Shown: positions 1 to 58,404, counted from the stretch's first letter. The stretch is 64,000 nt of DNA from a virus (IMGVR_UViG_3300045135_002242:31790-95789); one strand, 5' to 3'. Numbers and translations: made by a program. Notes: generated by a model not told the origin, from the sequence alone.

Positions 1-738
1 TTAGGCATTCCTTACAAGCTTGCTTCAGACTTATTAAAAGATATCCCTGTTATTGACAAGAAAACTGCTCCTAGAGAAGGATTGCATTCATACCCTTTTA
101 CTGGGGTTACAGCAGAAAGAGTTGAAAAATTTTCTGAACAACAGAGTAAAGCTAAAACATATCTTTACTTGAAGTTGAATAAAACCACCCCGGTACTGAA
201 CGATAAAGTTAATTCCTTTTCTAGCTATCAGCAAGTATATAAAATTTTGCAAAATATTGTTTATATGCCTCCTGTGCGAGGTGTGCCTAAGAAATATCAA
301 GAATATGTAGAAAACCTAGATAACTGGGTAGATTACGAAACATTTATTAAAGACAAGGTAAAATCTCATACATTTAAAGCTTCAGTAGATGTTCGCTTTC
401 CCTTTATACCTAGGGAGGTACTAAATCACAATAATATCCTTCTTTACCCGCAAAAAGTTCAAAACTTTTACAGGAGTTACGAAAAATTTTCTGAGTATAC
501 AAAAGATAAAAAGTATATTGCTGATCCGGATGTAGAGCTATTTCTTAAAGCACTAGGGGGAACTTTTGAGTCTTTACCTATGGATGTTCAAAAAATTACA
601 GACGCCTTTAAGAAAGATTTTCCACTAACAAGTAAACTCCTTTTCAATTTAAGGTATAAATATAATGATGATTTAAACTTTTGTATAGATCTGGCTAAAC
701 TGGAAGACTATCATGCAACACATTCAACTGGACAATAA
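1..738 (+). CDS. 5'-truncated phage protein, possibly rIIA-like C-terminal part
   Basis: Frame is open from base 1 (LGIPYKLASDLL...), so the gene starts before the window. It precedes an rIIB-like N-terminus and N4-like phages usually carry rIIA/rIIB; the assignment is positional. Confidence 0.35.
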   Translation, partial: LGIPYKLASDLLKDIPVIDKKTAPREGLHSYPFTGVTAERVEKFSEQQSKAKTYLYLKLNKTTPVLNDKVNSFSSYQQVYKILQNIVYMPPVRGVPKKYQEYVENLDNWVDYETFIKDKVKSHTFKASVDVRFPFIPREVLNHNNILLYPQKVQNFYRSYEKFSEYTKDKKYIADPDVELFLKALGGTFESLPMDVQKITDAFKKDFPLTSKLLFNLRYKYNDDLNFCIDLAKLEDYHATHSTGQ

Positions 739-1087
739 TAGTTTTATTTTAAATATTAATGGGACTTTAACTACAATAACCCGTAAATCTTTTAACTTTA
801 ATAAAATTAGTAAGCTACTAAAAGAAGAAGCTCCAGAAGAAAATATTGTCCCCCTACTAAAAACTCCAGATCTTTCAAATGGTGTTTATGAAATCTATAT
901 TTTTCCGTCCACTGATGCCATTTTTTATAAACATTTCACTAAGGGCTCAACTACTCCCACAACTCTAACAGTTTTAGGAAACACAAAACAACATAGTTCT
1001 ATCCCTAAAGACTGGGAAAACTACTTTGTGGGTGTATATGCTTCTGAAGCAGATATTAAAGCAGATTGGCCTGAATACTTTTTATAA
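713..1087 (+). CDS. Small protein resembling the rIIB N-terminus, with C-terminal PE tag (WPEYFL)
   Basis: SFILNINGTLTTITRKSFNFNKISKLL resembles rIIB N-termini; only 124 aa; GGAAG RBS-like sequence upstream. Confidence 0.4.
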   Translation: MQHIQLDNNSFILNINGTLTTITRKSFNFNKISKLLKEEAPEENIVPLLKTPDLSNGVYEIYIFPSTDAIFYKHFTKGSTTPTTLTVLGNTKQHSSIPKDWENYFVGVYASEADIKADWPEYFL

Positions 1088-1098
1088 GGAGAAAAAAA

Positions 1099-1905
1099 AT
1101 ATACGATTACTTTAAATATAACAATGGTGAAGATATCACCAAGGGGGCTTTTCGTATTAGTGCTTCCCAAGTAAGCAAGTTTTTTGATACTACTGCACAG
1201 TGGTACCGAGAACATTTAATGGGAGAAACTGGTTTTACGGGAAGTACGGCTACCCATTTAGGGTCTGCTGTACATACAGGGATTGAAATGTATGTACGAG
1301 AAGGAACAGTAAATTATAAAGTTATTAATGACCATGTAAATGCTATTACAGATGTAGAGATTGATAAAACTCACATTTTAAAGCAATATGGTCCTATGCT
1401 AGAAGCTGTTCTTCCTTTTGTGGAAGCAAATAAGCCTACTGAGGTAGAAAAATTTGTCTTTCATGAAATCCTGCCAGGAATCGGGGCCGGTGGCAGCATT
1501 GATGCCTTAAGAAACGATACTATTATTGACTGGAAAACTACGGGAAGTAAATCGCCACCCACAAAATTTTCTAGAAACTATTGGTTTCAGCAGATGACTT
1601 ATGCTTGGGTGTTAAAACAACAAGGAATTAATATTAATTTCCTTAAGCTAGTTTTTATCACTCAAGAGGAAGTAAATAGAGTAAGCGAAAAAACAGGCAA
1701 GCCCCTAAAAGACTACCCCTCTGTTTACTCCGTAGTTACAGAAGAAGTTACAGAGGATAAGCTGGAACTAATTGGGTCCTGTTTAAAATTAATTGCAGAA
1801 TCAGTCCAGGCTTGGAACAATAACCCTGATCTGAGGTATTTACTCGCTCAAGATTACCGTCTTAAGCCAAAACCTAAACCAATTATATTTAATACAAGGA
1901 GGTAG
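1099..1905 (+). CDS. PD-(D/E)XK (Cas4/RecB-like) exonuclease, probably starting at ATA 1099
   Basis: GSAVH, GSIDAL...IIDWKT and QQMTYAW motifs. The typical N-terminal RISASQ motif lies upstream of ATG 1219; AAGGAG RBS at 1086-1091 precedes ATA 1099. Confidence 0.75.
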   Translation: MYDYFKYNNGEDITKGAFRISASQVSKFFDTTAQWYREHLMGETGFTGSTATHLGSAVHTGIEMYVREGTVNYKVINDHVNAITDVEIDKTHILKQYGPMLEAVLPFVEANKPTEVEKFVFHEILPGIGAGGSIDALRNDTIIDWKTTGSKSPPTKFSRNYWFQQMTYAWVLKQQGININFLKLVFITQEEVNRVSEKTGKPLKDYPSVYSVVTEEVTEDKLELIGSCLKLIAESVQAWNNNPDLRYLLAQDYRLKPKPKPIIFNTRR

Positions 1906-1907
1906 TA

Positions 1908-2309
1908 TTGTCTATTACTAAAGTAGCATTTGAAGACTTTGCCAAAAACCCTAAAAGCTATTACAAATCTAAAGTAGCTTTTCCTGAATATCCTATATTT
2001 GTTAACAGTAACGGAATGTTTACAAACTATTATATAAAAGTAGGCAAGCAAGGAAAACTTAACCTGTGCTATGGGCAAAATAAATCTTTTTACCTGTCTG
2101 GAGAGCTAGTCTTTTCTGCTGACCGTGGATTACTAAACAGACAAAAGGTTATTTTACCTACATTATCGTACTTAGGGAGACTACTCCCAAAAACTATAAA
2201 AATATACCAGGATAACTTAGAAACCTACAAAAAAACTTATGAAAACGCAAAAGCCAAACTGGCTACCATAGATAAGTTAAAAAATGACTACCCTGAGCTG
2301 ATACTTTAA
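1908..2309 (+). CDS. Hypothetical protein with C-terminal PE tag (YPELIL)
   Basis: AGGAGG RBS, TTG start, tightly packed in the operon. Confidence 0.7.
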   Translation: MSITKVAFEDFAKNPKSYYKSKVAFPEYPIFVNSNGMFTNYYIKVGKQGKLNLCYGQNKSFYLSGELVFSADRGLLNRQKVILPTLSYLGRLLPKTIKIYQDNLETYKKTYENAKAKLATIDKLKNDYPELIL

Positions 2310-2319
2310 AGGAGTATAG

Positions 2320-2982
2320 ATGTCAGTAAAACTACTAATTTCTGCCGAAGCAAATTCCGGCAAAACTACATTAACCCGCAACCTAAAAAACTCATTGGTT
2401 GTAAGCCATGACGGTAAACGATACCCATTTAAGGTTCCTCATGTTATGGTGCCCTCTTTTGACAATGTAGAAGAGCTTATTGCAACAGTAGTAGATAAAA
2501 TTGAAACTTATAAAAATAAGTTTAAGACCTACCCTGAAACAGTTGTGTTTGATTCAGTATCTAAAATTTTTGACACTATCCATTCTAACTGCAACGAAAA
2601 GTTCAAAGGCTTTACTATTTATAGCGAACTAGATAAGGAAATTACCAAACTAACCGGTTTTATCGAAAACTCTCTTATCGCTAGTGGAATGAATGTCGTA
2701 CTTATTTCTCATGCTCTGTATGACTCAGAAACTGCTAAGTATAGCCTTGTAGGAAAAGGTTCATTTAGCAAAAGAGGTGGGTTCCTTGCCGAGGTAGACG
2801 AATCAATCTTTATTGAGGTAAAGAGCAACAAACGTATTTTGCATTTCCGTTCTACTAAACTACCGGCAAGGACTCTTCAAGAAGACCTAGCAGACAGTAT
2901 GCCTATTGAGGATTTTAACCTCCAAGAGCATATTGAAGTTCTAGCAGCAACCACAAATGAAGTAGACGAATACGCACTTTAA
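2320..2982 (+). CDS. Sak4-like / AAA_24 P-loop ATPase (single-strand annealing)
   Basis: Walker A AEANSGKTT, Walker B VVFDS, VVLISH; adjacent to SSB and exonuclease. Confidence 0.8.
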   Translation: MSVKLLISAEANSGKTTLTRNLKNSLVVSHDGKRYPFKVPHVMVPSFDNVEELIATVVDKIETYKNKFKTYPETVVFDSVSKIFDTIHSNCNEKFKGFTIYSELDKEITKLTGFIENSLIASGMNVVLISHALYDSETAKYSLVGKGSFSKRGGFLAEVDESIFIEVKSNKRILHFRSTKLPARTLQEDLADSMPIEDFNLQEHIEVLAATTNEVDEYAL

Positions 2983-3010
2983 TCTATAAATTATAATATA
3001 AGGAAATCTT

Positions 3011-3685: not shown

Positions 3686-3696
3686 GGTAGGGTATC

Positions 3697-4851: not shown

Positions 4852-4873
4852 GCACTTTTATAAGTGCTTATTA
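4848..4873. repeat. 11-bp inverted repeat (hairpin or operator)
   Basis: AATAAGCACTT-TTAT-AAGTGCTTATT at the gene junction. Confidence 0.55.
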
Positions 4874-4888
4874 CTTACAGAGGGTCTT

Positions 4889-5536
4889 ATGAATTACTTT
4901 AAAAAAAGAAATATTAATACTGTTATAGATACTCTTCTTGATCACTTAGGGTTTTCAGATTGGTTTATTTCAGGGAGTTTTGCAAACAATCGTATGCGTA
5001 ACCCCTCTGACATTGATATTTATTTTTATACAAAAAAAGGTTACCAAAACGCCACTAGAAATTTGCAGAATAGTACTATTAGCGTATATATGGTAACCCC
5101 CAACGCTAGCAGCTTTATACTTAAAGGTTTAAAGCTACCGGTACAACTTGTTGCTAAGCATTTTGGTACTCCACAAGAAATTTTTAATACTATGGATATC
5201 AATGTATGCAAACAGGCTATTTTATCTGATAAAACTCTAGTACAAGATCCTTCAAGCCACTTTCCTGTAACTTTAAACAAGCCTTCCTACGGCTCTTTTT
5301 CTAGGTATTTTTACTACTTAGATAATTACTACTCCCCCGTAGAGCATTATAAAAAGTCAAAAATTCTTATTTCTAAATATATTACAGATAGTACCCTACT
5401 TTCCCACTATTACAAGGGAGAAGTTAACCACAAACCTACTAACCAATGTCTGTACGAAGCTGCTTTAAAACGGCCTGAGTTATGCTCTTTAATCAAACAA
5501 CAAACTTTATTACATGCTCCAGAGCTATTACTATGA
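4889..5536 (+). CDS. Nucleotidyltransferase-fold protein with C-terminal PE tag (APELLL)
   Basis: ISGSFA...SDIDIYF (GS...DxD) pol-beta signature, followed by VQLV...MDINVC. Confidence 0.65.
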   Translation: MNYFKKRNINTVIDTLLDHLGFSDWFISGSFANNRMRNPSDIDIYFYTKKGYQNATRNLQNSTISVYMVTPNASSFILKGLKLPVQLVAKHFGTPQEIFNTMDINVCKQAILSDKTLVQDPSSHFPVTLNKPSYGSFSRYFYYLDNYYSPVEHYKKSKILISKYITDSTLLSHYYKGEVNHKPTNQCLYEAALKRPELCSLIKQQTLLHAPELLL

Positions 5537-5592
5537 ATTTAACTGAAGAACAACAATGTTGTTATTGTTCTTCTTTTAAATTTGTAGTATAA
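5533..5592 (+). pseudogene. Orphaned original 5' end of the helicase gene (MNLTEEQQ...)
   Basis: Matches helicase start SLNLTKEQQ at 6364; ATG is coupled to the upstream stop; frame closes after 19 codons. Confidence 0.7.
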
Positions 5593-5593
5593 T
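5565..5593 (+). promoter_or_regulatory. sigma70-type promoter of the homing endonuclease
   Basis: TTGTTC-17 nt-TATAAT. Confidence 0.6.
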
Positions 5594-5615
5594 TACAATA
5601 AATTACAGGAACTAC

Positions 5616-7794: not shown

Positions 7795-8456
7795 TGAAAA
7801 TACCCCGCAGTATAGACGTCAAATATGAATATACTAACGATCCGTGTAAAGCTAGTTGTTGGTTACAAGATATTCCTGATACTTTTGCTGCAGACTTAGA
7901 AACAGCTATTAGGTATTCCCAAGAGGAGGTAAAAGAAGCTAAGCTTAAAGCTGCTGATACTTCTTTACCTAAAAAAGAGCAAATCTATAACCAATCTATT
8001 GCTAATGCTACCGCCTTAGGGCATCCATATCACTGTACTATTACCCATTGCAGTATTGCTAGTGAGGAGGACTTTGGCAGAGTTTTTATTATTGATAGTC
8101 AAGATATTGCTGATGTAGTATTAGATTTTTTAACTACTACAGACAAAACCCAAGTATGGCATAGATACGCCTATGATGGCAGGTTTATTAAATACTATGG
8201 TGGACAGCAGCCAAAAAATGTACAAGATACTCAAATATTTGCTAAAACATTAGTTAATCACGTAGAAGTTTTTAAAGCTTCTACCGGTCTTAAAGACTTA
8301 GCAGGAGCTTGGTACGGAGACTGGGGCATATCCTCTGAGCACTTTACTTTAGAGCAGCAGTATGAGCCTAAAGTAATTAAGTATGCGGCTATCGATGCTT
8401 GCGCAACTTTTAAGCTATGGAGATACCTTAATGAATTCATCGGAAAAACCTCTTGA
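7794..8456 (+). CDS. 3'-5' exonuclease subunit of a split family-A DNA polymerase
   Basis: ExoI DLET, ExoII H..AYD, DTQI, ExoIII YAAID. Confidence 0.8.
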   Translation: MKIPRSIDVKYEYTNDPCKASCWLQDIPDTFAADLETAIRYSQEEVKEAKLKAADTSLPKKEQIYNQSIANATALGHPYHCTITHCSIASEEDFGRVFIIDSQDIADVVLDFLTTTDKTQVWHRYAYDGRFIKYYGGQQPKNVQDTQIFAKTLVNHVEVFKASTGLKDLAGAWYGDWGISSEHFTLEQQYEPKVIKYAAIDACATFKLWRYLNEFIGKTS

Positions 8457-8682
8457 GATTTTTGATCAAACTCACTACGATAACACTTTTTATTTTTGTG
8501 AAAAAGATCACCCTTTTATCGCATTTACTACGGTTTTTTGCCCTTGTTGTCTACTTCATCAATCCAATGCTACTGCTACAGCTGAGCTAGAAGAGGCAGA
8601 ACAGATGTACGAAGATACTTTAGAACGGTTAGAAGAGTTAACTATCAAAGCAAAAAACACAGCACCTGAGATATTAGTATAA
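8431..8682 (+). CDS. Small Cys/His plus coiled-coil protein with C-terminal PE tag (APEILV)
   Basis: GGAG RBS before ATG 8431; CEKDH...CPCC motif; acidic helix. Confidence 0.6.
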   Translation: MNSSEKPLEIFDQTHYDNTFYFCEKDHPFIAFTTVFCPCCLLHQSNATATAELEEAEQMYEDTLERLEELTIKAKNTAPEILV

Positions 8683-8690
8683 GGAAAAAT

Positions 8691-10502
8691 ATGTATAGCC
8701 CTTGGGATCAACTACCTGCCCCAGAACCTAGCTCTATTGAGTATCCTTTGGGGCATTTTTACCAAAACACTGCTAAGTATCTTATCAAGGATACTGTCCG
8801 TATTATGGATAATGGTCTTAATATAGACTTTGACAAAGTTATTGAACTTGAAGCTGTTCTTAAAGAGCAGCTTGAAGAAGTAGGCAAAGAACTAAGCCAA
8901 AATCCTTTAATAAAAAACTACTTGGAACAAAGATATTCGTCTCAAGTTAAAGAGTACATTAAAGATAGAAAATCTAAAATGAGAGACGTTTCCTACTACC
9001 TCAAACCTTTTAAATTTAAAGATATGACTCATCGTAGCTACTTTATGGATGAGTATGCTAAATTACAAGGATGGGGCAGTCCTGAGGAAAAACTTCCAAC
9101 AGGTGTTCCTAAATGGTCTGTAAAACTAGTTAAGCAATACGCAAAAACTAACAGATTATTAAGGATGATGTTGGAAGGTAAGAGTCCTGGCCCTACAAAT
9201 ATTATCAATAAAGCTATGAACAGACTAGCCCAAGATAAGGCAACAATCTACAACGAAAAGTATGTTAGCCAAGTAAAAAAGCCAGAAGTACCTTTTCCTA
9301 AGTTTAATCCTAGTTCTCCCCAGCAGAAACAAGAGTTGTTTAAAATGCTTGGTATAGAATCAGAAGAAACTTCAAAAGACACAGGACTGCCCAAGTGGGA
9401 TAGAGCACAAGTAGAACGAGTTAATGCTGAAACAGACAATCCAGATGTAAAACATTTTACTCAATGTTTTATTGATCATTCTTTTGCAGCTATTATTAAA
9501 AATAACTTCATCGAAGCTTTCTATAACTATACGGTAGAAGGTCGTTTATATGGCCAATATAACCTCCTAGGAGCTAAATCAGGCAGGTATACTAGCTCTA
9601 ACCCTAACATGCTTAATGCCCCCTCTACAGGCTCTAGATTTGCTAAGCCAGTTAAAAAGTGCTTTACTGCCCCTTCTGGTAAAGTAATTATGGCTGCAGA
9701 TTACAACGCCCTAGAAGATAGGGTTATCGCCTCGCTTTCAAGAGATACTAACAAATGTGATATCTTTCTTAAAAACTTAGATGGGCACTCCTTGAACGCT
9801 CTAGGTTATTTTCCAGACCGCATTAAAAATCTTATTACTTTGACTGGAGATGTGCCTACCGATGTTAAAGCGTTTAAAGAACTAGTGGATAATGGAAACT
9901 CAGAGGCTAAAGATATCAGGCAAGAGTCTAAAGGGCCTACCTTTGGCCTAGCTTATGGCGCTTTCCCTCCTAAAATTGCAGCTACTTTAAAAATTACTTT
10001 GGAGCAAGCTACGGAAATTTTTAATAATTACCATAAAGTTTTGTATCCAGGTATTACAGAGTACCGTGAAAACTACGTACTGCCTATTGCAAGAGAGAAT
10101 GGTGAGATCCACCTAGGTTTAGGGTTTACCTTAAAAACGGATGATGCAGATAGGGATATTAGAACTTTGTCTAACGCTACTTGCCAGTTTTGGTCTATCT
10201 TAACAGCTTTGACTATTAATAAAATGCATAACCTTATTGACCAAGCAGGCTACGAAGAAGATGTAAAAGTTATATCTACAATCTATGATTCTATTTACTT
10301 TGAAGTGACTAGTGACCCTAAAATTATTAAATGGGTAAATGATAACCTTATTAAAGTCATGGTAGTAGACTTTATGGAAAATCAAACAATCAGTAATGAA
10401 GCAGAGTGTGAGATTGGGTATAACTGGGCAGATATGGAAACCCTACCTATCAATGCTTCTGTACTACAAATCAAACAAGTAATTAAAAAGTTACCTAAAT
10501 AA
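8691..10502 (+). CDS. DNA polymerase family A, polymerase subunit
   Basis: SGRYTSSNPNMLN, motif A ADYNALEDR, motif B RQESKGPTFGLAYG, motif C IYDSI. Confidence 0.9.
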   Translation: MYSPWDQLPAPEPSSIEYPLGHFYQNTAKYLIKDTVRIMDNGLNIDFDKVIELEAVLKEQLEEVGKELSQNPLIKNYLEQRYSSQVKEYIKDRKSKMRDVSYYLKPFKFKDMTHRSYFMDEYAKLQGWGSPEEKLPTGVPKWSVKLVKQYAKTNRLLRMMLEGKSPGPTNIINKAMNRLAQDKATIYNEKYVSQVKKPEVPFPKFNPSSPQQKQELFKMLGIESEETSKDTGLPKWDRAQVERVNAETDNPDVKHFTQCFIDHSFAAIIKNNFIEAFYNYTVEGRLYGQYNLLGAKSGRYTSSNPNMLNAPSTGSRFAKPVKKCFTAPSGKVIMAADYNALEDRVIASLSRDTNKCDIFLKNLDGHSLNALGYFPDRIKNLITLTGDVPTDVKAFKELVDNGNSEAKDIRQESKGPTFGLAYGAFPPKIAATLKITLEQATEIFNNYHKVLYPGITEYRENYVLPIARENGEIHLGLGFTLKTDDADRDIRTLSNATCQFWSILTALTINKMHNLIDQAGYEEDVKVISTIYDSIYFEVTSDPKIIKWVNDNLIKVMVVDFMENQTISNEAECEIGYNWADMETLPINASVLQIKQVIKKLPK

Positions 10503-10506
10503 AATC

Positions 10507-10567
10507 GAGCAAGGTGTTCCTTTCCACCTGTGAGCCTTTTCGGTGGGGTGCTCAATAATCACCGAAA
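10507..10567 (+). ncRNA. Candidate pseudoknotted structured RNA
   Basis: GAGCA/TGCTC, AGGTG/CACCT and crossing TTTCGGTG/CACCGAAA stems in a GC-rich intergenic island. Confidence 0.4.
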
Positions 10568-10575
10568 CTAGACTC

Positions 10576-10604
10576 TTGTTATTTACTAACTTCATTGCTA
10601 TACT
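10576..10604 (+). promoter_or_regulatory. sigma70-type promoter (extended -10)
   Basis: TTGTTA-17 nt-TATACT with TG at the extended -10 position. Confidence 0.6.
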
Positions 10605-10632
10605 TTGATTTTTGCTGTGAAGGATTTTCTCT

Positions 10633-11061
10633 ATGAAAAAATCAATGTCTGTTGAAAATATGCTTGGCGGCTGTATTACAGATATGCTATTTTATATTAA
10701 TCAACTGCATCTCACTCATTGGCTTACTCTTAAAAACCATCATCATGTAGTAGTTGGTACTCTTTACTCTGAACTAGAAGAAGAACTAGACAGCTTAGCT
10801 GAGCAGTTTTTAGGGGCCTCTTTGCCCGAAATGAAACCAGAAGAAGCGTTGCATTTATCATATGGCGTAAAAGAGCCTCGTTACTACAAGGTAATAAAGA
10901 GTGAGGCTGATATTATTGCTCTTGTTGATGAAATTACAAGACGTGCCCAAAAAGGATTAAAATTGGTAGAAGATAATCCTAAATTTTCTTTTATGAGAGA
11001 TTCTATTATGGATATGATCGCCGTGCTTCATAGCGCTAAATACCAAATCACCCAAGAGTAA
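10633..11061 (+). CDS. Ferritin/Dps-like four-helix protein (moron)
   Basis: HLTHW...HHHVVVGTLYSELEEELDSLAEQ Dps-like motif; has its own promoter and terminator. Confidence 0.7.
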   Translation: MKKSMSVENMLGGCITDMLFYINQLHLTHWLTLKNHHHVVVGTLYSELEEELDSLAEQFLGASLPEMKPEEALHLSYGVKEPRYYKVIKSEADIIALVDEITRRAQKGLKLVEDNPKFSFMRDSIMDMIAVLHSAKYQITQE

Positions 11062-11081
11062 TTACAAATACATTTTTAACT

Positions 11082-11106
11082 AAAAACCTCCTACGGGAGG
11101 TTTTTT
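11082..11106 (+). terminator. Rho-independent terminator (possibly bidirectional)
   Basis: AAAAA CCTCC TACG GGAGG TTTTTT. Confidence 0.85.
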
Positions 11107-11125
11107 GCCCTAAAGGATTACCTAT

Positions 11126-11536
11126 TTGTTAACATTTAACCTACCAATTTACTGGACTCAGCACTATAAAACAAAACCTGATAAGACTGTTTTAGCTTCT
11201 ATGAATTGGTACCGTAATGCAAATTACTATGCTCAAAATAACATGAAAAAAGATTTCCACGCATTAGTAGATTCACAGCTTTCAGGTGAGGCTATTAAAA
11301 ACGCTTATACTTTGAATATGGAAATTTATTATAAGAACCCTTCCTGTGACGGAGCTAATATAGCACCTTTGGTAGAAAAATTTGTTTTAGACGCTCTTCA
11401 AGCTGCTAATGTCGTAGTAAATGATAACGTAAACTACCACAAAGGAAGTACTTGGAAAATAGTAGAACAGGACAAAAATAACCCACGATGCCTCGTTACA
11501 GTTGTACCAATTAAACTTAATTCAGGAGACCAATAG
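11126..11536 (+). CDS. RusA-like Holliday junction resolvase
   Basis: SMNWYRN, DGANI...KFVLDALQ...VNDN, DKNNPR motifs. Confidence 0.75.
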   Translation: MLTFNLPIYWTQHYKTKPDKTVLASMNWYRNANYYAQNNMKKDFHALVDSQLSGEAIKNAYTLNMEIYYKNPSCDGANIAPLVEKFVLDALQAANVVVNDNVNYHKGSTWKIVEQDKNNPRCLVTVVPIKLNSGDQ

Positions 11537-13263
11537 TGCTTGATTTTGCTAAAAAACTATTAAAAAAACATTATTGTAGACCTAACGAGTCTATTAAAGA
11601 AGCCTTTAAACGTGCTAGCGATTGTTTTGCTTCTAACGATTTACATAGCCAGCGACTGCAAAGCTACCTAGAAAAAGAATGGTTTATGTATAGTTCTCCC
11701 GTTTTAAGTAACGCAGTGCTGCCAGGAGAAAAAGTTAAAGGACTACCTATTAGCTGTTTTTTAACTTTTGTACCAGACAGTATTGAGGGCCTGTGTGCTC
11801 ACACCACAGAAGAACGTTGGTTGTCTGTTAAAGGGGGTGGTGTAGGAGGCCACTGGAGTGGTGTTAGAAGCATTTCAGATAAGACCCCAGGGGTCAACGG
11901 CTTCCTGCACACTGTTGACGCCGATATGGTGGCTTATAGGCAAGGCAAAACCAGACGAGGCAGTTACGCAGCGTACCTAGATGTAAGCCACCCAGAAATC
12001 GTAGAATTTATTAAAATGCGAACACCTACGGGGGACTTAAACCGTAAAAATCTAAATCTACACCATGGTGTTAATATTACAGACGCTTTTATTGAGGCAG
12101 TCAACGAAGACTTAGATTGGTCATTAATTGATCCTCATAACCAAAAAGTAGTTGAAGTTGTTAAAGCTAGGGCTATTTGGGAAGAAATTCTTGTAGCTAG
12201 GTTCCGTACTGGTGAACCTTACATTAACTACCTTGACGAAGCTAACAGAAAAATGCACCCAGCTTTAAAGGCTGCAGGGCTAAAGATTAATGGCAGTAAC
12301 TTATGTAACGAGATTCATTTACCTACTTCTGAAGACCGTTCAGCAGTTTGCTGCTTATCTTCTGTTAATTTAGCTAAATTTGATCAGTGGAAAGATAATC
12401 CTTACTTCATTGGGGATCTTATTGAAATGCTTGACAATGTCTTGCAATTCTTTATTGATAATGCCCCTGATGAACTCAGCAAAACTAAATACTCAGCAGA
12501 AAGGGAACGTTCCTTGGGGTTAGGTGCTATGGGCTTTCACGACTACCTAATGGCTCACGGTATTCCTTTTGAAAGTAGCTTAGCTATTGCTGTTAATAAG
12601 AAAATGTTTTCTACTATTAAAAATAATGCCTTAGCAAAAACTACTCAGCTGGCTTTGGTTAGAGGTCAGGCCCCAGACGCTATTGGGTATGGTGTTAGAA
12701 ACACCCATCTTTTAGCTATCGCTCCTAATGCTAATAGCTCTATTATTTTGGGGGTATCTCCTTCTATTGAGCCAAGGTCCTCCAACTGTTATACCCATAA
12801 AACCCGTATTGGAAGCCACTTAGTTAAAAACCCTGCACTAATGGATGTATTGACTAGTTATAATAAAAACTCTAAAGAAGTATGGGACTCTATCATGGAA
12901 AATGATGGTTCTGTGCAGCACCTAGATTTTCTTTCTAAGGACGAAAAAGATGTGTTTAAAACAGCTTTTGAGATTGACCAGCACTGGGTAGTAGAAATGG
13001 CAAGAAGTAGGCAAGAGTACCTGTGTCAGGGGCAGTCAGTTAACTTGTTCTTCCCAGCAGGAGCAAATAAAAGTTATGTAAATGCAGTACACAGAAGAGC
13101 GTTTAAGCCTGCTGATAATGTAGGACATCCTCTCAAAGGCGTATACTACTTACGTACTGAGTCTAGTAAAAAGACAGAAAAAGTGAATATTAAGATTGAA
13201 CGTCAAGCACTACAAGATGGAGTGCAAGGCTCACTTGATACGTGTTTGGCCTGTGAAGGTTGA
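11536..13263 (+). CDS. nrdA: Class I ribonucleotide reductase alpha subunit (short, no ATP cone)
   Basis: PISCF, GGGVG, SNLCNEI, VCCLSS, APNANSS, CQGQSVN, YYLR, C-terminal CLACEG. Confidence 0.95.
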   Translation: MLDFAKKLLKKHYCRPNESIKEAFKRASDCFASNDLHSQRLQSYLEKEWFMYSSPVLSNAVLPGEKVKGLPISCFLTFVPDSIEGLCAHTTEERWLSVKGGGVGGHWSGVRSISDKTPGVNGFLHTVDADMVAYRQGKTRRGSYAAYLDVSHPEIVEFIKMRTPTGDLNRKNLNLHHGVNITDAFIEAVNEDLDWSLIDPHNQKVVEVVKARAIWEEILVARFRTGEPYINYLDEANRKMHPALKAAGLKINGSNLCNEIHLPTSEDRSAVCCLSSVNLAKFDQWKDNPYFIGDLIEMLDNVLQFFIDNAPDELSKTKYSAERERSLGLGAMGFHDYLMAHGIPFESSLAIAVNKKMFSTIKNNALAKTTQLALVRGQAPDAIGYGVRNTHLLAIAPNANSSIILGVSPSIEPRSSNCYTHKTRIGSHLVKNPALMDVLTSYNKNSKEVWDSIMENDGSVQHLDFLSKDEKDVFKTAFEIDQHWVVEMARSRQEYLCQGQSVNLFFPAGANKSYVNAVHRRAFKPADNVGHPLKGVYYLRTESSKKTEKVNIKIERQALQDGVQGSLDTCLACEG

Positions 13264-14680: not shown

Positions 14681-16114
14681 ATGGCAGAAATTTCTTTTGA
14701 ACTCCCCCGAGACGTTACTCGTATTTGGGATTTACCGGTACCCATTATTGTAAATAATGATACTAAAACTATTAAAGCATACCTCACAGGGGCTATTGAC
14801 GAGCCTTCTCTTTACAACGAGCTATGCTACTTGCTGGATGAAGCATCTTCGGATACTACCGTAGATATTTTTATTAATACCCCTGGAGGAGTTGTAGACT
14901 CCGCTTTTATGATTGCTAACGCCATTAAATCCTCTAAAGCTAAAGTGGTAGGTTATCTCTCAGGGACCGTCGCTTCAGCAGGTACTATTATTTCCATGGT
15001 GTGTGATGAGTTGAAAGTTACTCCCCACCTTTCATTTATGATCCATAATTATTCTGGTGGTATGGCAGGTTGACTAATAGCCTTTTGTAGAAGTGATTCT
15101 ACATCAAAACTCACTTAAACGGGGAAACTCTGACCGTGTAATGACGAAGACAATCCCGTACTAAATTAATTTTTCCACATTGGTAAATCAATGTAAGTAT
15201 GGTATAATAAGGGACATAAAAGCTTAAAACATAGGAGTATTTATGTTAACCCAAACCTTATTAAAAGAAAAACTAAACTATGATCCAATAACAGGTATAT
15301 TTACTTGGAAGCAGGGTAAATATAAAAACAAACCTGCAGGAACAATAGCAGGTAAGTTACCTGACCAAGGTTATGTGCGTATTAATATTGACAAAAAAGA
15401 ATATAAAGCACATAGATTAGCTTGGTTATATATGTATGGTGTATTTCCTCCTAAACATTTGGATCATATAAATAGGAATCGTGAAGATAATTCTATTGCA
15501 AATCTTCGTATAGCTGATGATTCTATAAATAGCAAAAATAAGACTATTTATAAAAACAATTCAACCGGATTCCATGGCGTTACTGCGCATGGTAGCCGTT
15601 GGAGAGCAAGAATTAATGTCAAAGGTAAAAAAATACATTTAGGCATATTTGACACAGCAGAGGAAGCTGCAGCTTGTAGAAAACAAGCAGAGCAAAAATA
15701 CGGATTTCACAAAAACCATGGAAAAATTATAAATGTCTAACGACTATCCCGTAAGCCAATAAAGGGAGTACACTACAAGCAAACGGTAGTGGAAATAGTG
15801 AGAATCCTTATAGGATTTTGATATAGTCTAGACTGCATAGAAATATGCAGAAGTTCATGGAAGCTTTCCCCTGAGAACTGGCGTAGAGGTTGCGTTCTAC
15901 GTTGAATATACCGAAAGGTCATGAAATGAAAGCGCGCCAAAAATTTACTGATGACCATCTTAACGAGGCCTTTAAAACTTACTATACAGGATTTCTGACA
16001 GAAGAAGAAATGGATAAAGTAATTGAAGGCACAGACCTATGGATGGGCACTGATGAGGTGGTAGAGCGCTGGAATAATCGCACTAGCTACACTAAAGGAG
16101 AAACTAATGACTGA
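14681..16114 (+). CDS. ClpP-like (S14) protease, spliced: exon 1 14681-15070, exon 2 15914-16114 (196 aa)
   Basis: INTPGG, VASAG (Ser), FMIH (His) in exon 1; TDLWM (Asp) in exon 2; in-frame join HNYSGGMAG|KGHEMKA. Confidence 0.85.
15180..15208 (+). promoter_or_regulatory. Internal promoter of the intron endonuclease
   Basis: TTGGTA-17 nt-TATAAT with extended -10 TG; AGGAG RBS before 15243. Confidence 0.55.
15243..15740 (+). CDS. Intron-encoded HNH-AP2 homing endonuclease
   Basis: YKAHRLAWLY...DHINRNREDNSIANLR HNH core; GFHGV...WRARI...HLGIFDTAEEAA AP2 domain; lies in the P6 loop with its stop overlapping J6/7. Confidence 0.9.
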   Translation: MLTQTLLKEKLNYDPITGIFTWKQGKYKNKPAGTIAGKLPDQGYVRINIDKKEYKAHRLAWLYMYGVFPPKHLDHINRNREDNSIANLRIADDSINSKNKTIYKNNSTGFHGVTAHGSRWRARINVKGKKIHLGIFDTAEEAAACRKQAEQKYGFHKNHGKIINV

Positions 16115-16955: not shown

Positions 16956-17122
16956 TTGCTAACTTACTTCAATCTATTGGTATAGTATTTACATTATTAA
17001 TTATTGCATTTGTTGTAGTGATTTCTATGTATTTATCTTACATCATAGGAGTAAGCATAGTAATTATAGCTTTAATATTTATTACTTATCATATTACCTC
17101 TGCACTTAAAAAGAATAAGTAG
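16952..17122 (+). CDS. 56-aa membrane protein (not in ORF track)
   Basis: MIANLLQSIGIVFTLLIIAFVVVISMYLSYIIGVSIVIIALIFITYHITSALKKNK; ATGA coupling to the upstream gene. Confidence 0.6.
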   Translation: MIANLLQSIGIVFTLLIIAFVVVISMYLSYIIGVSIVIIALIFITYHITSALKKNK

Positions 17123-20100
17123 ACTCTTTTAGCAGCGCTGGTGTAATAAAGTTCATAAAGTTTTCTGCTGGGCTGTATATTGGAAATACATTTCCTGGCC
17201 CCAGAGAATCTCCATACCAGTCTTTTACTAGGAAAGATTGTTCATGGATACTAGGAAAACCTCCCAAGAAGCCAAACGCAGCAGCGCCAAAAGCGGCTTT
17301 GAGGGGGGCCCTACTACCGCTCTTTATAATAATTCTTTGAATACGCTTAACATATTTTGTGAACATCAAAATACCTACCCGGTTTAGGTACTCTTCTATT
17401 CTGCTGGACGGCTTTGCATAGTTAATAAAATCCTCAACTAGTTCGTACTCTCGTTGTGTTTTAGCCTCCTCAAGAAACTGCTTTCGCTCTGTTCCGGTTA
17501 GGCGTTGTTTAGGCTTATAGTCTTTGCGTTGTTTTTCCAACCACCAAGCCGGTAGCATACGGTGACCATCAGCCTGTTTCTGAGTAATTTTTTTCTCTAA
17601 TTGATTTTGCACATCCCTTGCCATTAAATCATTAGTTTCTAGAAACTCATTTGCAACTCTATAAAACATGGTACGTCTGGTAATAAACAAAATGTCTAAA
17701 CCATCACGTACAAGCTCAGGAGCTTTTTGCAGCTGCTCATCAATAGCACTGGTAATACGGTTAGTATCACGAGCACCCTCATTAGTAACGTCTTCTACGT
17801 TTTGGTCAAGACCCAGTTGAACTAGTTCGTCAATGGGGCTATCTTTCATTCTACGTTTCGTAGCGCCCAGCTCCCCCTGGACCTTAACTAATTCCTGCTC
17901 TACCGCGCTTCTACGCTGGGCCGATAGTACGTCTCTACGCTTAGCCGCATTCAATTCCCTTTCTCTATTTTCCAGTTCCTGTACTCTTTTAACATCTTTG
18001 TCATAAGCCTTAATGTTACGGTAACTTTCTACGTACATTTTTATAACTGTGATTGGGTCATACCCTCTCATTGCGGCGTACACAAGATTAGCAAAAATAT
18101 TACTTAACAAGATAGTTGGCATTTTCAAAAGAATGTTAGTTTTAACAATCTTAATCATTTCCACCCACATCATTTCTGCAAATTTGATAACTTTCATCAA
18201 TACAGGTGGAGTGATTTTTGCCAAGCCAGGGAAATTTGCAATACTGATATGGCTGTAGCCAAAGAATAAGTGGTGCAAGTCTGCTCTTACAGCTAAAGTC
18301 TCATCTGCCCTATTTTGAATAAACTGTTGAAACTCTCTTGGCAGCATGTAGTACAGTTTACGCATTTCTGGGTCAGGAGCTTTAGGCCCAATAATTGTGT
18401 AATCAGTTATCCCATCCTTACCTTTCGATCCTGCATTCCAGTTTTCGTACATATCTTTTTTTAAGATATCTAGTGCTCTGTTGTTGTGCTGAGCACTCAT
18501 ATCCTTATCAAGGAGTGTACCAAAAGATCTAGCCATTACTTCAGATATTCTAGTATCTTGTTTTAACAACTCTTTTTTGGTAGCTTTATCCATCATGTAA
18601 CGGTAATCTACTACTTTCCCGTCTTCATTAATGACAGGCACAACACCAAATACTGTGTCAGTAAAATCGTATTCACCTTCTTCCATTTTCTTTGCACGAG
18701 CCGTAGCTTCTCTTTGGATATTAGCGATATCTCTTTTAGCTCTTTCCTGAATAATTCTACTACCAATATTTCCTGCGTCTTTGTAAGACAAATCAGTAAC
18801 AGTCGTACCTTTAGATTTAATCTGGTTCAGACGTACACCGCCACGTAAACGATCTGGTCTACTAGCTGTGTCAGTAACGTACAGCGCCATAGGTTTGTTT
18901 CTTGAGTCACCTGCCCTAGGAGCTAGCTTAGCCCTAAACACAAAGCCTTGAGCTTCCATAACTGCTCTCTCTTCAAGAGGAGCTACTTCCATCATAATAC
19001 TGTCATCAAAGACTTCACGAGTATAGCCTTTTATCTTGTTAGTCTTTTTACCCTTAAATACAGTCTCGTCAGAGTTTTTCTTAAACCCTTCTACTACATC
19101 AGCAACATGCTGAACACCTTTCCAATCCTTTTCCATAAGATCAGCAACCATCATACGCTGGTCTTTGTCAGTATTCTTAAGTGCAACTAATGTCGCTAGT
19201 TCGTCAATAGCTTTAACAACGTCAGCATTAGGTTTTTTACGATGAGAGCTGTGGATACCACGTGCAATATTAAACGCATTAAGGTTTTGCTCTGGCGTAC
19301 CTCTATGAGTAGCCATGTAAATACCTAAGCCTACTGCCTGGTTAGAGTGCCAGTTATAGTGTTCACCATCAATGTCTTTGAGAGCGCGTTTAGTGTCTTT
19401 AATAAAACGATCCAACGTCTCATCATCAACTAGGAGCTTACGTAGCGTAGCGTTATCATAGATAGTCTTACGAATATCCATATATTTTGCTACTGAATCT
19501 TTACCAAACAAAGCCGCTAAGTCTGTATCTGCAATTACTGCAGTCAGAGCTTCTTCATCTAGTTTAGTAACTTCTGTAGTTTCACCAAACTCGCTAAGAG
19601 TATTCTTACGAACTAGGTCAATCTGGTTGTTACGCAGTTTATCAATGTAACCTGACTGCAGTGCCAAGAACTCAACTACTTTTTGTGTGCTGTCTGTAGC
19701 AAACATACCACCAATAATTTCACGCAACGCACTATCAGGTTTCATACCCCACGCAGTAGCAACCCCACCCATAGCTCTAGTGTATGCTGGGTTAACAATA
19801 GACAACCCAATAAACTTAGCCACCCATGTAACTTTACCGTATAAAGTATCTGGAATAGGTTCTAGCTGTTTACTTACAGCATCGCCTAAAATCTTATTTT
19901 TACCTTTATCTAAAGCTCTAGCAGCCTTATCCTCTAGGCCGTTAACTACGTCAAATACAGCTGTTAAGAAGTTACCTTTTTCTGACAGGTCACGATTAGC
20001 TTTAGTATTAATTTCTCCTAACCTGAAAGCTAGGTTGACTAAAGCGTCATGTACATTGTCGTGTTTTTGTTTTAGCGTAAAACCTTTTAGAATCTCTAAT

Positions 20101-51727: not shown

Positions 51728-51737
51728 CAGTTATACC

Positions 51738-52169: not shown

Positions 52170-52181
52170 TGATTTTCTCCT

Positions 52182-54900: not shown

Positions 54901-54957
54901 AAAAAATTCCTAAACTGCTTAGTTACTATGGCAAAAGCGTAACGTCAATCAAAGTAA

Positions 54958-54986
54958 ATTATACTCACATAGATTAAATAAGTCAA
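54958..54986 (-). promoter_or_regulatory. sigma70-type late promoter
   Basis: TTGACT-17 nt-TATAAT. Confidence 0.75.
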
Positions 54987-54998
54987 CAATACAACCTA

Positions 54999-56561
54999 TT
55001 AAAATACCGTACTAAGCTGCTCTACCTCATCCTCTTCATCCCATATAGATTCCCATATAAGTCCGTCTGAAGTTACTTCGGTATTAGTTCTGCTATACTC
55101 ACTAGAGGGTAGATAAATATCCATCTCAGAAAGCTGATTAAGCAGGTCAACAGCATCATCATGGGCTAGAGCTTTAACACCCCCGGCCAAGGTAAACCTA
55201 CTAAGCTCATGCACTAGTTCTTCAACCAAAGTCAACAATCTAGGTGAATGCAGTTTAGCTAGTTCTGGTTTAGGCAGCCAAATTTTATTTTGTTTAAATT
55301 TAGGCTGAACGCCTGTAACAAATCTGTGCACTTTATCTTTAATAGGTCTAATCCCTACATCTTTACTTCCTGGCTTTTTAGCAAAAGTAAACCACACGTT
55401 TCTTTTCATCATAATTTCTTGCATGATAGAAATAAACCCTCCTTGCTGGCCTGAGCTTTCAATACCAACACTGATAGGGTTCCACTTTCTTACATAGCGA
55501 AATAAATCATCAATATTTTCTTGCATTGTCTGTCTAATACACTGACCATCTACTAGCAACCAATCACTATTACTGGATACCGCCCATACCCCAATTGTAG
55601 AAAAGTCAGCAGATTTTTTAGTGCTGGTAGCAAAATCCGTAGAAATATAAAAGTTGTAGCTTTCTTTATTCTTTTTAATAATATCCGGATCGTACCATTG
55701 AATATCCTCTTCATCAACTAGTAGGGTGGTTAGGTCAGTAATCTCAAGCATAAATTCTTGAAAAAAGTCTTGAGCCTTACCAGCAGCTTTATACATTTCA
55801 TACTTATCTAGTACCGCTTCATATGGAAAACGGTCTACCCAATTACCTATAAACTCATTTTTTTCGCAAGGAAACTTTTGGGCAATAGGAAATTTATGTA
55901 CTGCCCACTTTGGGTTATTGCTCAACTGATGAATAATATCTCGTTCAGAAATAGGAGTACCAATAAAGAAAATCTTAAACCTAGTGGGGTGTAAGGCCGG
56001 AATTACGGATTTATAAAAGTTATCATTAATGGTATTTTGGATTGTTTCAGAATTAATAGCATCGTTAGTAGTAATATCATCAAGAATAACAATATCAGGA
56101 CGAGCGCCCTTATAACGAACACCACGAATGTTGGTACTAGCGCCATAACCTTTTAGGTTTAGTTCTACACCATCTGCGTTAGCTAGCTCCATTTCTGAGT
56201 CAGTTTTACGTTTTACCTTGATTAACTGACGAAGCAGTTCAGATCTATCAATTTTGCCTGCAAGGTTACGAAAAAAGTTTTTAGTACCATTTTCCATGCT
56301 ATCGCCAATAAAAGCAATAAACTGCACTTTACCAAAGTTGTGTAAATTACCCATAGCAGCAATATAAAGAACAAACCACTCCATCATAGTAGACTTAGCA
56401 CTACCACGAAAAGCCTCAATTAGTACCTGCTTATCTTTACTAAAATACTTATCTGCTAACCTATAATGGATTTCTGCATTAGCATTATCTTCTACGTTAG
56501 CTGCACGAATAAAAGCAATAAACTTCATCGATTCTTCGCTAGGCACATATGAATCTGTCAT
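54999..56561 (-). CDS. terL: Terminase large subunit (N4 gp68-like)
   Basis: FRGSAKST, RPDIVILDD, IGTP, STDFATS..ADFS, HDDAVD. Confidence 0.92.
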   Translation of the reverse strand: MTDSYVPSEESMKFIAFIRAANVEDNANAEIHYRLADKYFSKDKQVLIEAFRGSAKSTMMEWFVLYIAAMGNLHNFGKVQFIAFIGDSMENGTKNFFRNLAGKIDRSELLRQLIKVKRKTDSEMELANADGVELNLKGYGASTNIRGVRYKGARPDIVILDDITTNDAINSETIQNTINDNFYKSVIPALHPTRFKIFFIGTPISERDIIHQLSNNPKWAVHKFPIAQKFPCEKNEFIGNWVDRFPYEAVLDKYEMYKAAGKAQDFFQEFMLEITDLTTLLVDEEDIQWYDPDIIKKNKESYNFYISTDFATSTKKSADFSTIGVWAVSSNSDWLLVDGQCIRQTMQENIDDLFRYVRKWNPISVGIESSGQQGGFISIMQEIMMKRNVWFTFAKKPGSKDVGIRPIKDKVHRFVTGVQPKFKQNKIWLPKPELAKLHSPRLLTLVEELVHELSRFTLAGGVKALAHDDAVDLLNQLSEMDIYLPSSEYSRTNTEVTSDGLIWESIWDEEDEVEQLSTVF

Positions 56562-56779
56562 AAAAACTCCTCGGGGTACTCGGCAATCGTCATTTTCCGC
56601 AGTATCTTAATACAAGTAGCATACTCTGAAAGAGGGATAGAGTAATTTTCTCCGATATGCACAATATTGTTAGCGTCAACCCAAATAGGGTTGGATGGTT
56701 TGGGAATTGTAACTGAATCAGCTGTTATACTACCACTAGTTATTTGCCCACCAGTAATAAGCCCATTGCTACTAATCAT
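56558..56779 (-). CDS. Small protein with C-terminal PE tag (YPEEFL)
   Basis: Overlaps both neighbours; ATGA-coupled to terL. Confidence 0.6.
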   Translation of the reverse strand: MISSNGLITGGQITSGSITADSVTIPKPSNPIWVDANNIVHIGENYSIPLSEYATCIKILRKMTIAEYPEEFL

Positions 56780-57494
56780 TTACAATTTCACCTTCGATAA
56801 TGTCATCGTTAATGACTTTCATAGCTCCCAGCTCTTTTAAACTAGTGGCCCCGGCTTCTAGGTGTTTAAGGGAGCGTCCTGCAATTTCCGCTAGCTGATC
56901 ATTAAGCTGCTGTACTGCACTAGATTCACTTACGCCAACATCCAACTCCATCTTAATGTTTTCAGGCCCTTTAGTTGCTGCAAGTAACTCTTTAGCGGCA
57001 TTAATCTTATCTCTGTCGTACTTCCCATTTTCCATAATAGTAGCTAGTACACCAATAGCCTTGTATCTATGCCCAGTAAAAATGAGATCTAGAGGTACCT
57101 GACTAGCTGTAAGAATGTCTGTTACAAGCTTAGTACGGCGATACCGTGAAGCGGCACTGGTTAGCTCTGTGTATTTGGGGCTTTCTGTAGGAAGATTTAT
57201 TCGCTCCTTTACAAAATCCCTATCCGCAAACACCTTTTTATACGCTTCAGTGTAGTTAGATTCATTGGTCATCAGATAAGCACAGAACCGAATAGCATTC
57301 AAGTATTCAGGTACAGAAGCTCTAGCATTCTTAAGAACACTCTCATAAGTAGCTGCAGTCTGGATTAGTGATTCGCCTTGAAACTCAGGGTCATCCAAAG
57401 AAGCATTAATAATGTCTACGGCTTCTTGAGTAACAAAGTTTTTCTTTTTAGGCAACGCGCGTTTAACGTCTTCAAGAGTTAAAAGCTCTCCCAT
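56772..57494 (-). CDS. N4 gp69-like protein (possible small terminase)
   Basis: YLNAIRFCAY...YTEAYKKVF...AAKELL; start re-called at ATG 57494 after AAGGA. Confidence 0.7.
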   Translation of the reverse strand: MGELLTLEDVKRALPKKKNFVTQEAVDIINASLDDPEFQGESLIQTAATYESVLKNARASVPEYLNAIRFCAYLMTNESNYTEAYKKVFADRDFVKERINLPTESPKYTELTSAASRYRRTKLVTDILTASQVPLDLIFTGHRYKAIGVLATIMENGKYDRDKINAAKELLAATKGPENIKMELDVGVSESSAVQQLNDQLAEIAGRSLKHLEAGATSLKELGAMKVINDDIIEGEIVND

Positions 57495-57542
57495 AGTGTA
57501 TTCCTTGTAAGTATTGTTATGTATATTATTTATCAGTATAAC

Positions 57543-57572
57543 AAAAAAATGACCCCTAAACAAGGGGCCATT
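57543..57572 (-). terminator. Rho-independent terminator
   Basis: - strand ATGGCCCCT...AGGGGTCAT TTTTTT. Confidence 0.65.
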
Positions 57573-57573
57573 A

Positions 57574-57813
57574 TTAGGAGGAAACATATGAAAACAGATC
57601 ACCACTGTCGTATGTAGGATTATATTCTATATACTCAGCAGAGGCAACTAGGTTTTTATATCTTTTCCATAATTTCTGTGCCCTAATGTTTGCAGCTCTT
57701 ATCACATTAGGATGTACATCTAGTGGGAGATAGTCTGGTATATTATTTATTTGTTGGAAAATAAGATCAAACTCCTCATCTGGAGTCCTTATTTTACTTT
57801 TATTGACTCGCAT
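57574..57813 (-). CDS. Hypothetical protein
   Basis: GGAG RBS, operon packing. Confidence 0.55.
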   Translation of the reverse strand: MRVNKSKIRTPDEEFDLIFQQINNIPDYLPLDVHPNVIRAANIRAQKLWKRYKNLVASAEYIEYNPTYDSGDLFSYVSS

Positions 57814-58186
57814 CGATTAAGTTTTCTCCTGCCAGTAATTTTTCATAAGCTTCTACAACTAGATTCAAATCTACCTCGAAAAATTCGGTAGACCCGCTAA
57901 ACTTCTTTGCAAACTTATAGTTATACTTCTCAAAATACTTATGAAGCTGTGCCTCTTTTTCATAAACATCTGAAGTTTTTTTAAATCTTTTAGGTCTACA
58001 ATAGGGAAACTCTCGGTACTTTTTGAATATACTAACGAGTATTTCAGAAACTCGCTCCTCAATAGTTCTACCAGTAACCCCAATTTTAACTAGTGCCTTA
58101 CCCTCCAGCTCAAAATATACTAAATATAATATACCCGGGTCTTCTCCGGCAGACACTTTTTCTTTTGTTACTTTAAACTTCACCAT
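57800..58186 (-). CDS. T5orf172/GIY-YIG-like nuclease
   Basis: LYLV...VKIGVT...EERV...EAQLH...GSTEFF. Confidence 0.75.
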   Translation of the reverse strand: MVKFKVTKEKVSAGEDPGILYLVYFELEGKALVKIGVTGRTIEERVSEILVSIFKKYREFPYCRPKRFKKTSDVYEKEAQLHKYFEKYNYKFAKKFSGSTEFFEVDLNLVVEAYEKLLAGENLIDASQ

Positions 58187-58404
58187 TACACAAAATACTC
58201 AGGAAAGTTTTGCATATCTTTTTTAGAGTGTTTGCCTTGCCTATCCCTATAAAAAGCAGGCCTAGACTCAATATAAGCTAGTATGCACTCTATAGCGTTA
58301 TCCATACCCCATTCATAGTCATTAACAAAACCTATTTTAGGGTCTACTTCCAAGTCTTGAAGCAAACCAACTAGTTGCTTATGCACATTCTCTACTGTTT
58401 TCAT
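58186..58404 (-). CDS. Small protein with C-terminal PE tag (FPEYFV)
   Basis: Translationally coupled on both sides. Confidence 0.65.
   Translation of the reverse strand: MKTVENVHKQLVGLLQDLEVDPKIGFVNDYEWGMDNAIECILAYIESRPAFYRDRQGKHSKKDMQNFPEYFV

Follow-up and report, generated by a model that had tools for sequence, protein, structure and literature searches.

In MoxR/von Willebrand factor A (vWA) systems, the metal-ion-dependent adhesion site (MIDAS) grips an acidic residue of the client protein. Jumbo phages carry a pair of this kind, a MoxR ATPase and a peptidase fused to a vWA domain, for which a role in virion assembly has been proposed (Iyer et al. 2021, PMC7824862); the same authors cite a MoxR/vWA system that the Acidianus two-tailed virus needs to grow its tails. 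Bacterial peptide-processing systems combine a zincin peptidase with small ‘FxSxx-COOH’-type proteins and are coupled to vWA–MoxR (Kaur et al. 2020, PMC7159879). Four peptide types named in that paper, which cites Haft and Basu 2011, are FxSxx, RxD, an acidic run and FtsH-associated. Here we describe a C-terminal tail containing Pro-Glu (the PE tail) that is shared by six unrelated proteins encoded in a 64,000-nucleotide stretch of viral DNA (the window; bases 31790–95789 of the 95.8-kb IMG/VR phage record IMGVR_UViG_3300045135_002242, hereafter G000). The tail is a real signal, selected at the peptide level and anchored to the terminus, and comparison across phages suggests that it is an undescribed address label, read most likely by the phage’s own MoxR/vWA-peptidase pair.

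Translation of the six open reading frames (ORFs) in the window gives the ends WPEYFL, YPELIL, APELLL, APEILV, YPEEFL and FPEYFV, exactly as a first-pass annotation of the window had read them. Genes were called by a simple longest-ORF heuristic, which yields about 136 genes in G000. Pro-Glu occupies positions −5/−4 in nine of these: the six in the window and three more, all upstream of it, at G000 10410–10640 (FPEFLV), 25328–25588 (YPEYIL) and 25588–25818 (HPEAFI). With 85 PE dipeptides among 29,289 residues, 0.39 such proteins are expected at any one fixed position (Poisson P ~4e-10), in agreement with the earlier estimate of well under one by chance. The enrichment is confined to −5/−4 and is absent at other distances from the C terminus. 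In a stricter test, the 30 C-terminal residues of every protein were shuffled and the highest count of any dipeptide in any of seven registers was recorded; for the genome, this count reached nine in 1 of 2000 trials, and for the window, six in 6 of 2000. Among the annotated proteins of the genome, no polymerase, ribonucleotide reductase (RNR), helicase, terminase, portal protein, capsid protein or virion RNA polymerase carries the tail, as the first-pass annotation had noted for core enzymes and the capsid protein.

To describe the tail itself, we pooled 137 examples from nine genomes. Their consensus is [K/E][E/K][K/E/T]-[Y/H/F]-P-E-[Y/L/E]-[F/Y/L]-[L/I/V]-stop, with a six-residue pattern of [Y/H/F]-P-E-x-[F/Y/L]-[L/I/V]-stop at its end. 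The third base of the Pro codon varies freely (G in 55, A in 50, T in 24 and C in 8), Leu is encoded almost equally by CTN and TTR codons, and there is no conservation past the stop codon. The constraint therefore sits on the peptide, as first proposed from the six window genes. The bodies to which the tail is attached are indeed unrelated: without their last ten residues, the 137 proteins fall into 124 BLAST clusters. Among ten of the larger tagged proteins, Pfam searches gave one match to a P-loop kinase-like protein and weak matches to nucleotidyltransferases (NTases), the others being of unknown family. Where homologues exist in PE-bearing phages, the tail is retained. It is present in 13 of 13 homologues within the fetched loci, in three orthologues of Alteromonas phage AD45-P1 and in every other homologue found in PE-bearing phages, including all ten from an unbiased search (about 35% identity). 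The tail differs from the HbYX motif of proteasome activators, as its penultimate residue is F in 69 of the 137 proteins and Y in only 29.

The tail is not restricted to G000. A scan of IMG/VR for Y-P-E-Y-F-L-TAA returned 23 stretches, about the number expected by chance; nine of them, from seven records, are packed with tails, and in one 13-kb stretch 23 of 37 genes are tagged. Many of the IMG/VR records compared are fragments. The tail occurs on 52 of 201 genes in G004 (26%), 16 of 66 in G009 (24%), 18 of 40 in G006 (45%; a record that is 6% complete), 7 of 42 in the N4-like G018 (17%), 7 of 44 in G011, which is also L058 (16%), 8 of 62 in G016 (13%; 20% GC) and 17 of 180 in G017 (9%). G016 and G009 are T4-like, judged by topoisomerase II, a T4-type terminase and baseplate parts. 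Across the tail-rich IMG/VR phages, 5–45% of genes are tagged and GC content ranges from 20 to 43%. Cultured phages carry the system too, namely Vibrio phage phiKT1024 (OM249648.1; 191 kb, T4-like) with its relatives, and Alteromonas phage AD45-P1. In phiKT1024, Pro-Glu is found at −5/−4 in 76 of 336 genes versus 1.3 expected. The enrichment in related genomes, which the first-pass annotation had proposed to count, is large.

The best candidate for a reader lies outside the window, in the upstream part of the genome. A zincin peptidase (DUF2201_N) fused to a DUF2201 vWA-like domain, which we call the vWA-peptidase, is encoded at G000 9120–10409, and a MoxR-like ATPase at G000 10674–11993 (Pfam AAA_5, 27.5 bits versus a cut-off of 22). 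One of the tagged genes, that of 76 amino acids at G000 10410–10640, sits between the two. When the 136 G000 proteins were compared with six other tail-rich records, only the vWA-peptidase (five of six) and MoxR (four of six) had homologues in two or more of them. The same pair gives by far the best G000 matches to the T4-like phiKT1024 (2.6e-104 and 5.4e-75), the next being RNR at 7e-23. On this evidence, the module has moved between phage backbones. PF13203 is present in 5 of 7 tail-rich records versus 0 of 11 records hit by chance; once two further scans were added and only records at least 60% complete were counted, it is found in all 6 tail-bearing and in 3 of 13 tail-free records (Fisher P = 0.003).

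We also ran the comparison in reverse, with 80 IMG/VR loci picked solely because they hold a vWA-peptidase homologue. A MoxR gene lies inside the 10-kb flanks in most of them. These loci contain 116 PE tails among 2313 genes, nearly all beside the approximately 22 closest relatives of the G000 protein, and the 58 distant loci are at chance level. In the vWA-peptidase tree, all PE loci fall into one clade of 27 (SH-aLRT support 99). Tagged genes directly adjoin the vWA-peptidase gene in 7 of 8 genomes.

Both proteins of the pair retain the motifs of their families. Among 12 MoxR homologues, at least 90% conserve the Walker A motif G-x-H-G-x-G-K-S and all have D-E; a weak profile match to PDB 2r44 (E = 0.0018) was obtained, the AD45-P1 orthologue is annotated as COG0714, and phmmer against PDB sequences found no match. 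The H-E-x-x-H motif is invariant in 53 vWA-peptidase sequences, with a third His that is invariant or nearly so. The same sequences hold a complete MIDAS motif, D-x-S-x-S...G-G...D, with D301, S303, S305, G357, G358 and D383 unchanged throughout and T359 kept in at least 90%. In an AlphaFold model of the vWA-peptidase (pLDDT 89), the C-terminal domain matches the MIDAS domains of CMG2, integrin alpha-M and MDN1. NCBIfam gave no match for MoxR, the vWA-peptidase or the tagged NTase-like protein described below. A complex prediction that combined the vWA-peptidase alignment and a 40-residue tail alignment with Zn and Mg scored 0.01, which weighs neither for nor against binding. The G000 vWA-peptidase also has a lineage-specific insertion at residues ~64–87 with an internal tag-like N-P-E-P-I-L, which is absent from relatives and unique to G000, and is therefore probably a coincidence. 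In NC_021532.1 (45137–46459) and many RefSeq phage records, the zincin-peptidase/vWA fusion is labelled ‘HNH endonuclease’; the Pfam matches and the conserved HExxH and MIDAS motifs indicate that this label is wrong.

Tails differ between genomes in a concerted way. Each genome keeps to one last residue, and that residue changes from genome to genome: it is Leu in 51 of 52 tails of G004 and 16 of 16 of G009, and Ile in 64 of 74 of phiKT1024, 10 of 10 of L064, 6 of 7 of L055 and 6 of 7 of L058. That dozens of unrelated proteins change their last residue together argues for a single co-evolving reader in each genome. Only 1 of 582 alignment columns separates Ile-ending from Leu-ending genomes; this is position 105, three residues past the second zinc-binding His in the zinc-binding helix H-E-x-x-H-x-x-[N/L/Y]-x-H. 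Inside the PE clade there are variant dialects, [Y/F]-P-[Q/H]-Y-F-I and L-x-E-[W/Y/H]-x-[I/L]. A separate vWA-peptidase clade of 11 (support 100) is accompanied by L-E-V-I-S-E-S-R tails, and one long branch of the tree by x-E-L-[F/C]-x-x-x tails. Loci whose small genes share other tails are L089, L092, L105, L107, L110 and L112; L075 and L077; L073; and L091. In the Alteromonas N4-like phage vB_AmeP_PT11-V19 (OP751378.1; L179/L180; 71 kb), at least five small genes share the ending [D/E]-D-[D/E]-[G/E]-W-I (for example, EKDDGWI, KNDDGWI and ALNDDWI), which may be a different tag system; this genome also encodes a NirQ-like (MoxR-family) ATPase.

On balance, we consider the tail to be a docking tag for the MoxR/vWA-peptidase module, a reading that we hold with moderate confidence on the basis of these comparisons. 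The tail would mark unrelated proteins, mostly small early ORFans plus a conserved NTase-like enzyme, as clients of one phage-encoded machine. The machine would be the MoxR-like AAA+ ATPase working with the metallopeptidase–vWA fusion, and the module may bind the tail directly. MIDAS sites of integrin I-domains, CMG2 and Rea1/MDN1 grip an acidic ligand residue, which makes the tail Glu a natural MIDAS ligand. The invariant Glu could therefore complete the MIDAS metal site, and the apolar end could rest in the peptidase cleft or a groove close by. Once bound, the tagged protein, or a partner that it holds, may be remodelled at the expense of ATP or processed by proteolysis; candidate outcomes range from remodelling, trimming and degradation to the delivery of a host protein bound to it and loading into virions.

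More tentatively, we suggest that the PE tail is one dialect of a horizontally mobile system, in which MoxR and the vWA-peptidase read a genome-specific C-terminal address tag on 2–45% of genes. Different reader clades would use different tags, possibly P-E-x-F-L/I, P-Q-Y-F-I, L-x-E-W-x-I and L-E-V-I-S-E-S-R. If so, the tagged ORFans would be exchangeable heads for one machine. They could act as adaptors that bring in host proteins to be remodelled or cleaved, or be early proteins that are switched off on schedule.

Several observations weigh against the phage pair as reader. The evidence that points to it is comparative, and co-occurrence could arise from the co-transfer of one block of early genes without functional coupling. 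AD45-P1 has only three tails, none of them near its MoxR/vWA-peptidase pair. Four loci (L053, L059, L066 and L072) hold a vWA-peptidase of the PE clade, yet the 10 kb around it are free of tails. The pair is missing from two tail-rich records, which are only 6% and 45% complete. Position 105 is a mere lead and not significant, because the data offer three to four independent contrasts (about two concordant and none discordant), and with more genomes Tyr and Gly also accompany Ile. The virion-assembly role proposed for the pair in jumbo phages is a different function from the one we favour.

A host protein could instead read the tail, either as a degron for ClpXP, ClpAP, Lon or Tsp, or as a docking peptide on the sliding clamp, RNA polymerase or SSB, the phage pair being merely co-inherited. 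ClpX and Tsp recognise apolar C termini with a free carboxylate, so both the end of the PE tail and its strict terminal register would suit such proteases, and the assignment of binding to the phage pair is itself drawn from comparison. Even so, we consider a host reader unlikely. The tail tracks one clade of phage vWA-peptidases rather than the host, occurring in Alteromonas, Vibrio and uncultured phages of 20–43% GC, and a conserved host pocket would not be expected to tolerate a last residue that switches as a block between related phages. AD45-P1 and PT11-V19 both infect Alteromonas; the first has PE tails, and the second, the closest N4-like Alteromonas phage outside the AD45 group, has neither a PE tail nor a homologue of the MoxR/vWA-peptidase pair. 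This difference within one host genus argues against a conserved host hub or protease, which the first-pass annotation had put forward alongside a ClpP-like protease of the phage. At the thresholds used, no homologue of the latter’s gene (window 14681–16114) was found in the other tail-rich genomes. What is supported of that interpretation is a portable C-terminal signal on accessory proteins; the readers that it named are not supported.

The published proposal for the jumbo-phage pair invites another explanation, in which the tail is a virion-assembly or packaging signal and MoxR/vWA-peptidase is an assembly chaperone that loads tagged proteins into particles or trims them there. Two of the tagged genes do belong to the late arm, where they neighbour the terminase and ParB-like genes. 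Most, however, are in early or replication regions on the early-gene strand, no structural protein is tagged, and a quarter of the genes of a genome would be an unusual amount of virion cargo; we regard this explanation as improbable. We give equally little credence to the idea that the tail is a stand-alone structural element of one very divergent family of small proteins with no common partner, for example a helix cap or an oligomerisation or membrane-touching end. Helices commonly start with Pro-Glu, a model of the NTase-like protein shows the tail as a single helical turn that follows a long helix, three of the nine tagged G000 proteins look like related small beta-rich proteins, and BLAST is weak for proteins of 60–100 amino acids. 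Yet the tail also ends an NTase fold, a P-loop kinase-like protein and many unrelated ORFans, and distant NTase homologues in phages without the tag system have no tail. Nor would a structural element account for the link with one vWA-peptidase clade or for a last residue that switches across whole genomes. Finally, chance is rejected by the shuffle and Poisson tests, and a signal in DNA or RNA at gene ends is contradicted by the free wobble bases, the lack of conservation past the stop and the variable distances at which downstream genes start; together, these two are very improbable. Codon analysis rules out a Shine–Dalgarno site, promoter or terminator as the cause, and only in the gene at 56558–56779 do the P-E-E codons (CCC GAG GAG) double as a Shine–Dalgarno-like site, here for the terminase start.

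Among the six tagged genes of the window, the NTase-like protein (4889–5536, + strand; 215 amino acids, ending H-A-P-E-L-L-L) is the only tailed family common to several phage lineages. It has weak matches to Polbeta and DUF6932. Its alignments show G29, D41, D43 and D103 to be invariant, together with P211 and E212 of the tail. The retention of the catalytic G-S and D-x-D...D residues suggests that it is probably an active enzyme to which the tail has been appended. All ten homologues from the unbiased search (29–40% identity) end in x-P-E-L-L-[L/I], and the tagged gene adjoins MoxR in five loci (L055, L056, L062, G004 and phiKT1024). Distant homologues without a tail occur in three contigs that are free of PE tails; the vWA-peptidase was not found in these three contigs, only one of which (G049, 218 kb) is complete.

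Homologues also back two smaller tagged proteins. The first (713–1087, + strand; 124 amino acids, ending D-W-P-E-Y-F-L) matches PHROG 31418, of unknown function, over its full length. Its homologues in AD45-P1 (WPEYCL) and L055 (DYPEYFI) retain the tail, and tails that start with D-W-P-E-Y in L181, L184, L186 and L187 probably belong to the same family. The second (58186–58404, − strand; 72 amino acids, ending N-F-P-E-Y-F-V) lies beside a ParB-like gene and has a match to PHROG 23395 that reaches the end of the profile. Its AD45-P1 orthologue, which ends in H-P-E-Y-F-L, likewise adjoins ParB.

The other three window genes have neither a Pfam or PHROG family nor a homologue in the fetched loci, so that the ORF and the tail are what supports them as genes. 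They encode a protein of 133 amino acids with a TTG start and the end D-Y-P-E-L-I-L (1908–2309, + strand); a protein of 83 amino acids, or 99 from an ATG at 8383, with a Cys-rich N-terminal part, an acidic helix and the end T-A-P-E-I-L-V (8431–8682, + strand); and a protein of 73 amino acids that ends in E-Y-P-E-E-F-L (56558–56779, − strand). The last lies just upstream of the large terminase gene with an ATGA overlap, and is the least certain member because of the Shine–Dalgarno-like site within its tail codons.

G000 encodes proteins that match the PHROG virion RNA polymerase, N4-type portal, capsid protein and terminase, and is therefore an N4-like podovirus. Its closest cultured relatives are the Alteromonas phages vB_AmaP_AD45-P1 to P4 (66% identity in DNA polymerase); megablast of the window against the phage collection gave no match. 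The N4-type virion RNA polymerase is encoded by two abutting ORFs (window 17106–21278 and 21278–28573, − strand; 1390 and 2431 amino acids). The same split is seen in G018 (1212 and 2550 amino acids), and the AD45-P1 annotation at this place reads ‘potential frameshift’. The ClpP-like protease gene (+ strand) contains an insert of ~840 bp, placed exactly between the positions that correspond to residues 131 and 132 of the AD45-P1 orthologue. The insert has an HNH endonuclease ORF (15243–15740) and a sub-threshold Rfam match to a group I intron (15562–15850, E = 7.9e-6). The ends of the record (window 62214–63977 versus G000 1–2034) are inexact copies of ~2 kb that are 90–93% identical. A diverged terminal repeat could account for them, as could the joining, during assembly, of two strain variants of one terminally redundant genome.

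No block of unexplained phage genes is larger than that of the small early ORFans. With a shared tag, as much as a quarter of a phage’s genes, or more, would be placed in a single functional set and traced to the machine that acts on them. If the phage MoxR/vWA-peptidase pair is that machine, this widespread and uncharacterised module gains a concrete set of clients, and if reader–tag pairs are dialect-specific, they would be a source of orthogonal peptide tags. The tag and its link to the pair appear to be undescribed in print. Full-text literature searches, both with the tail sequences and on C-terminal motifs common to early phage proteins, returned nothing relevant, in line with the first-pass annotation, which knew of no description. 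A tag on phage proteins is mentioned neither by Iyer et al. 2021 nor by Kaur et al. 2020.

Like CbbQ–CbbO, NorQ–NorD, RavA–ViaA and Rea1/MDN1, the phage module places an AAA_5-type ATPase beside a MIDAS-bearing vWA protein. It differs from these in that the phage pair has no described client tag, the role proposed for it in print is in virion assembly, and its link to the tag is comparative. With ssrA-type and other degrons of ClpXP and Tsp, the PE tail shares an apolar end that must be terminal; unlike ssrA-type degrons, it has an invariant Pro-Glu four residues upstream, is linked to a vWA-peptidase clade rather than to Clp genes, and is encoded in the gene rather than added.

The T4 gp43, gp55 and gp33 tails that dock on the gp45 clamp, the acidic tails of T7 gp2.5 and gp4 and the tip of SSB are also short peptides at the extreme C terminus of unrelated proteins, and the concerted last residue of the PE tail likewise implies a single reader. 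The PE tail, however, consists of Pro-Glu and an apolar end and is neither acidic nor of the clamp type. Its carriers are far more numerous, up to a quarter or more of genes, and are mostly ORFans rather than replication proteins, and its partner is a candidate.

The systems described by Kaur et al. 2020 share with the phage locus a zincin peptidase, vWA and MoxR, plus small, fast-diverging proteins that are conserved only in a C-terminal peptide. The PE tail matches none of the four peptide types named there, and no radical-SAM/SPASM, AP-ATPase, VMAP or FtsH ternary context turned up among the annotated genes, although no search was aimed at them. Whereas those are bacterial, mostly actinobacterial, conflict systems with one small precursor gene and radical-SAM or AP-ATPase partners, the system described here is phage-borne, has its peptidase fused to vWA and has dozens of carriers per genome, including an enzyme.

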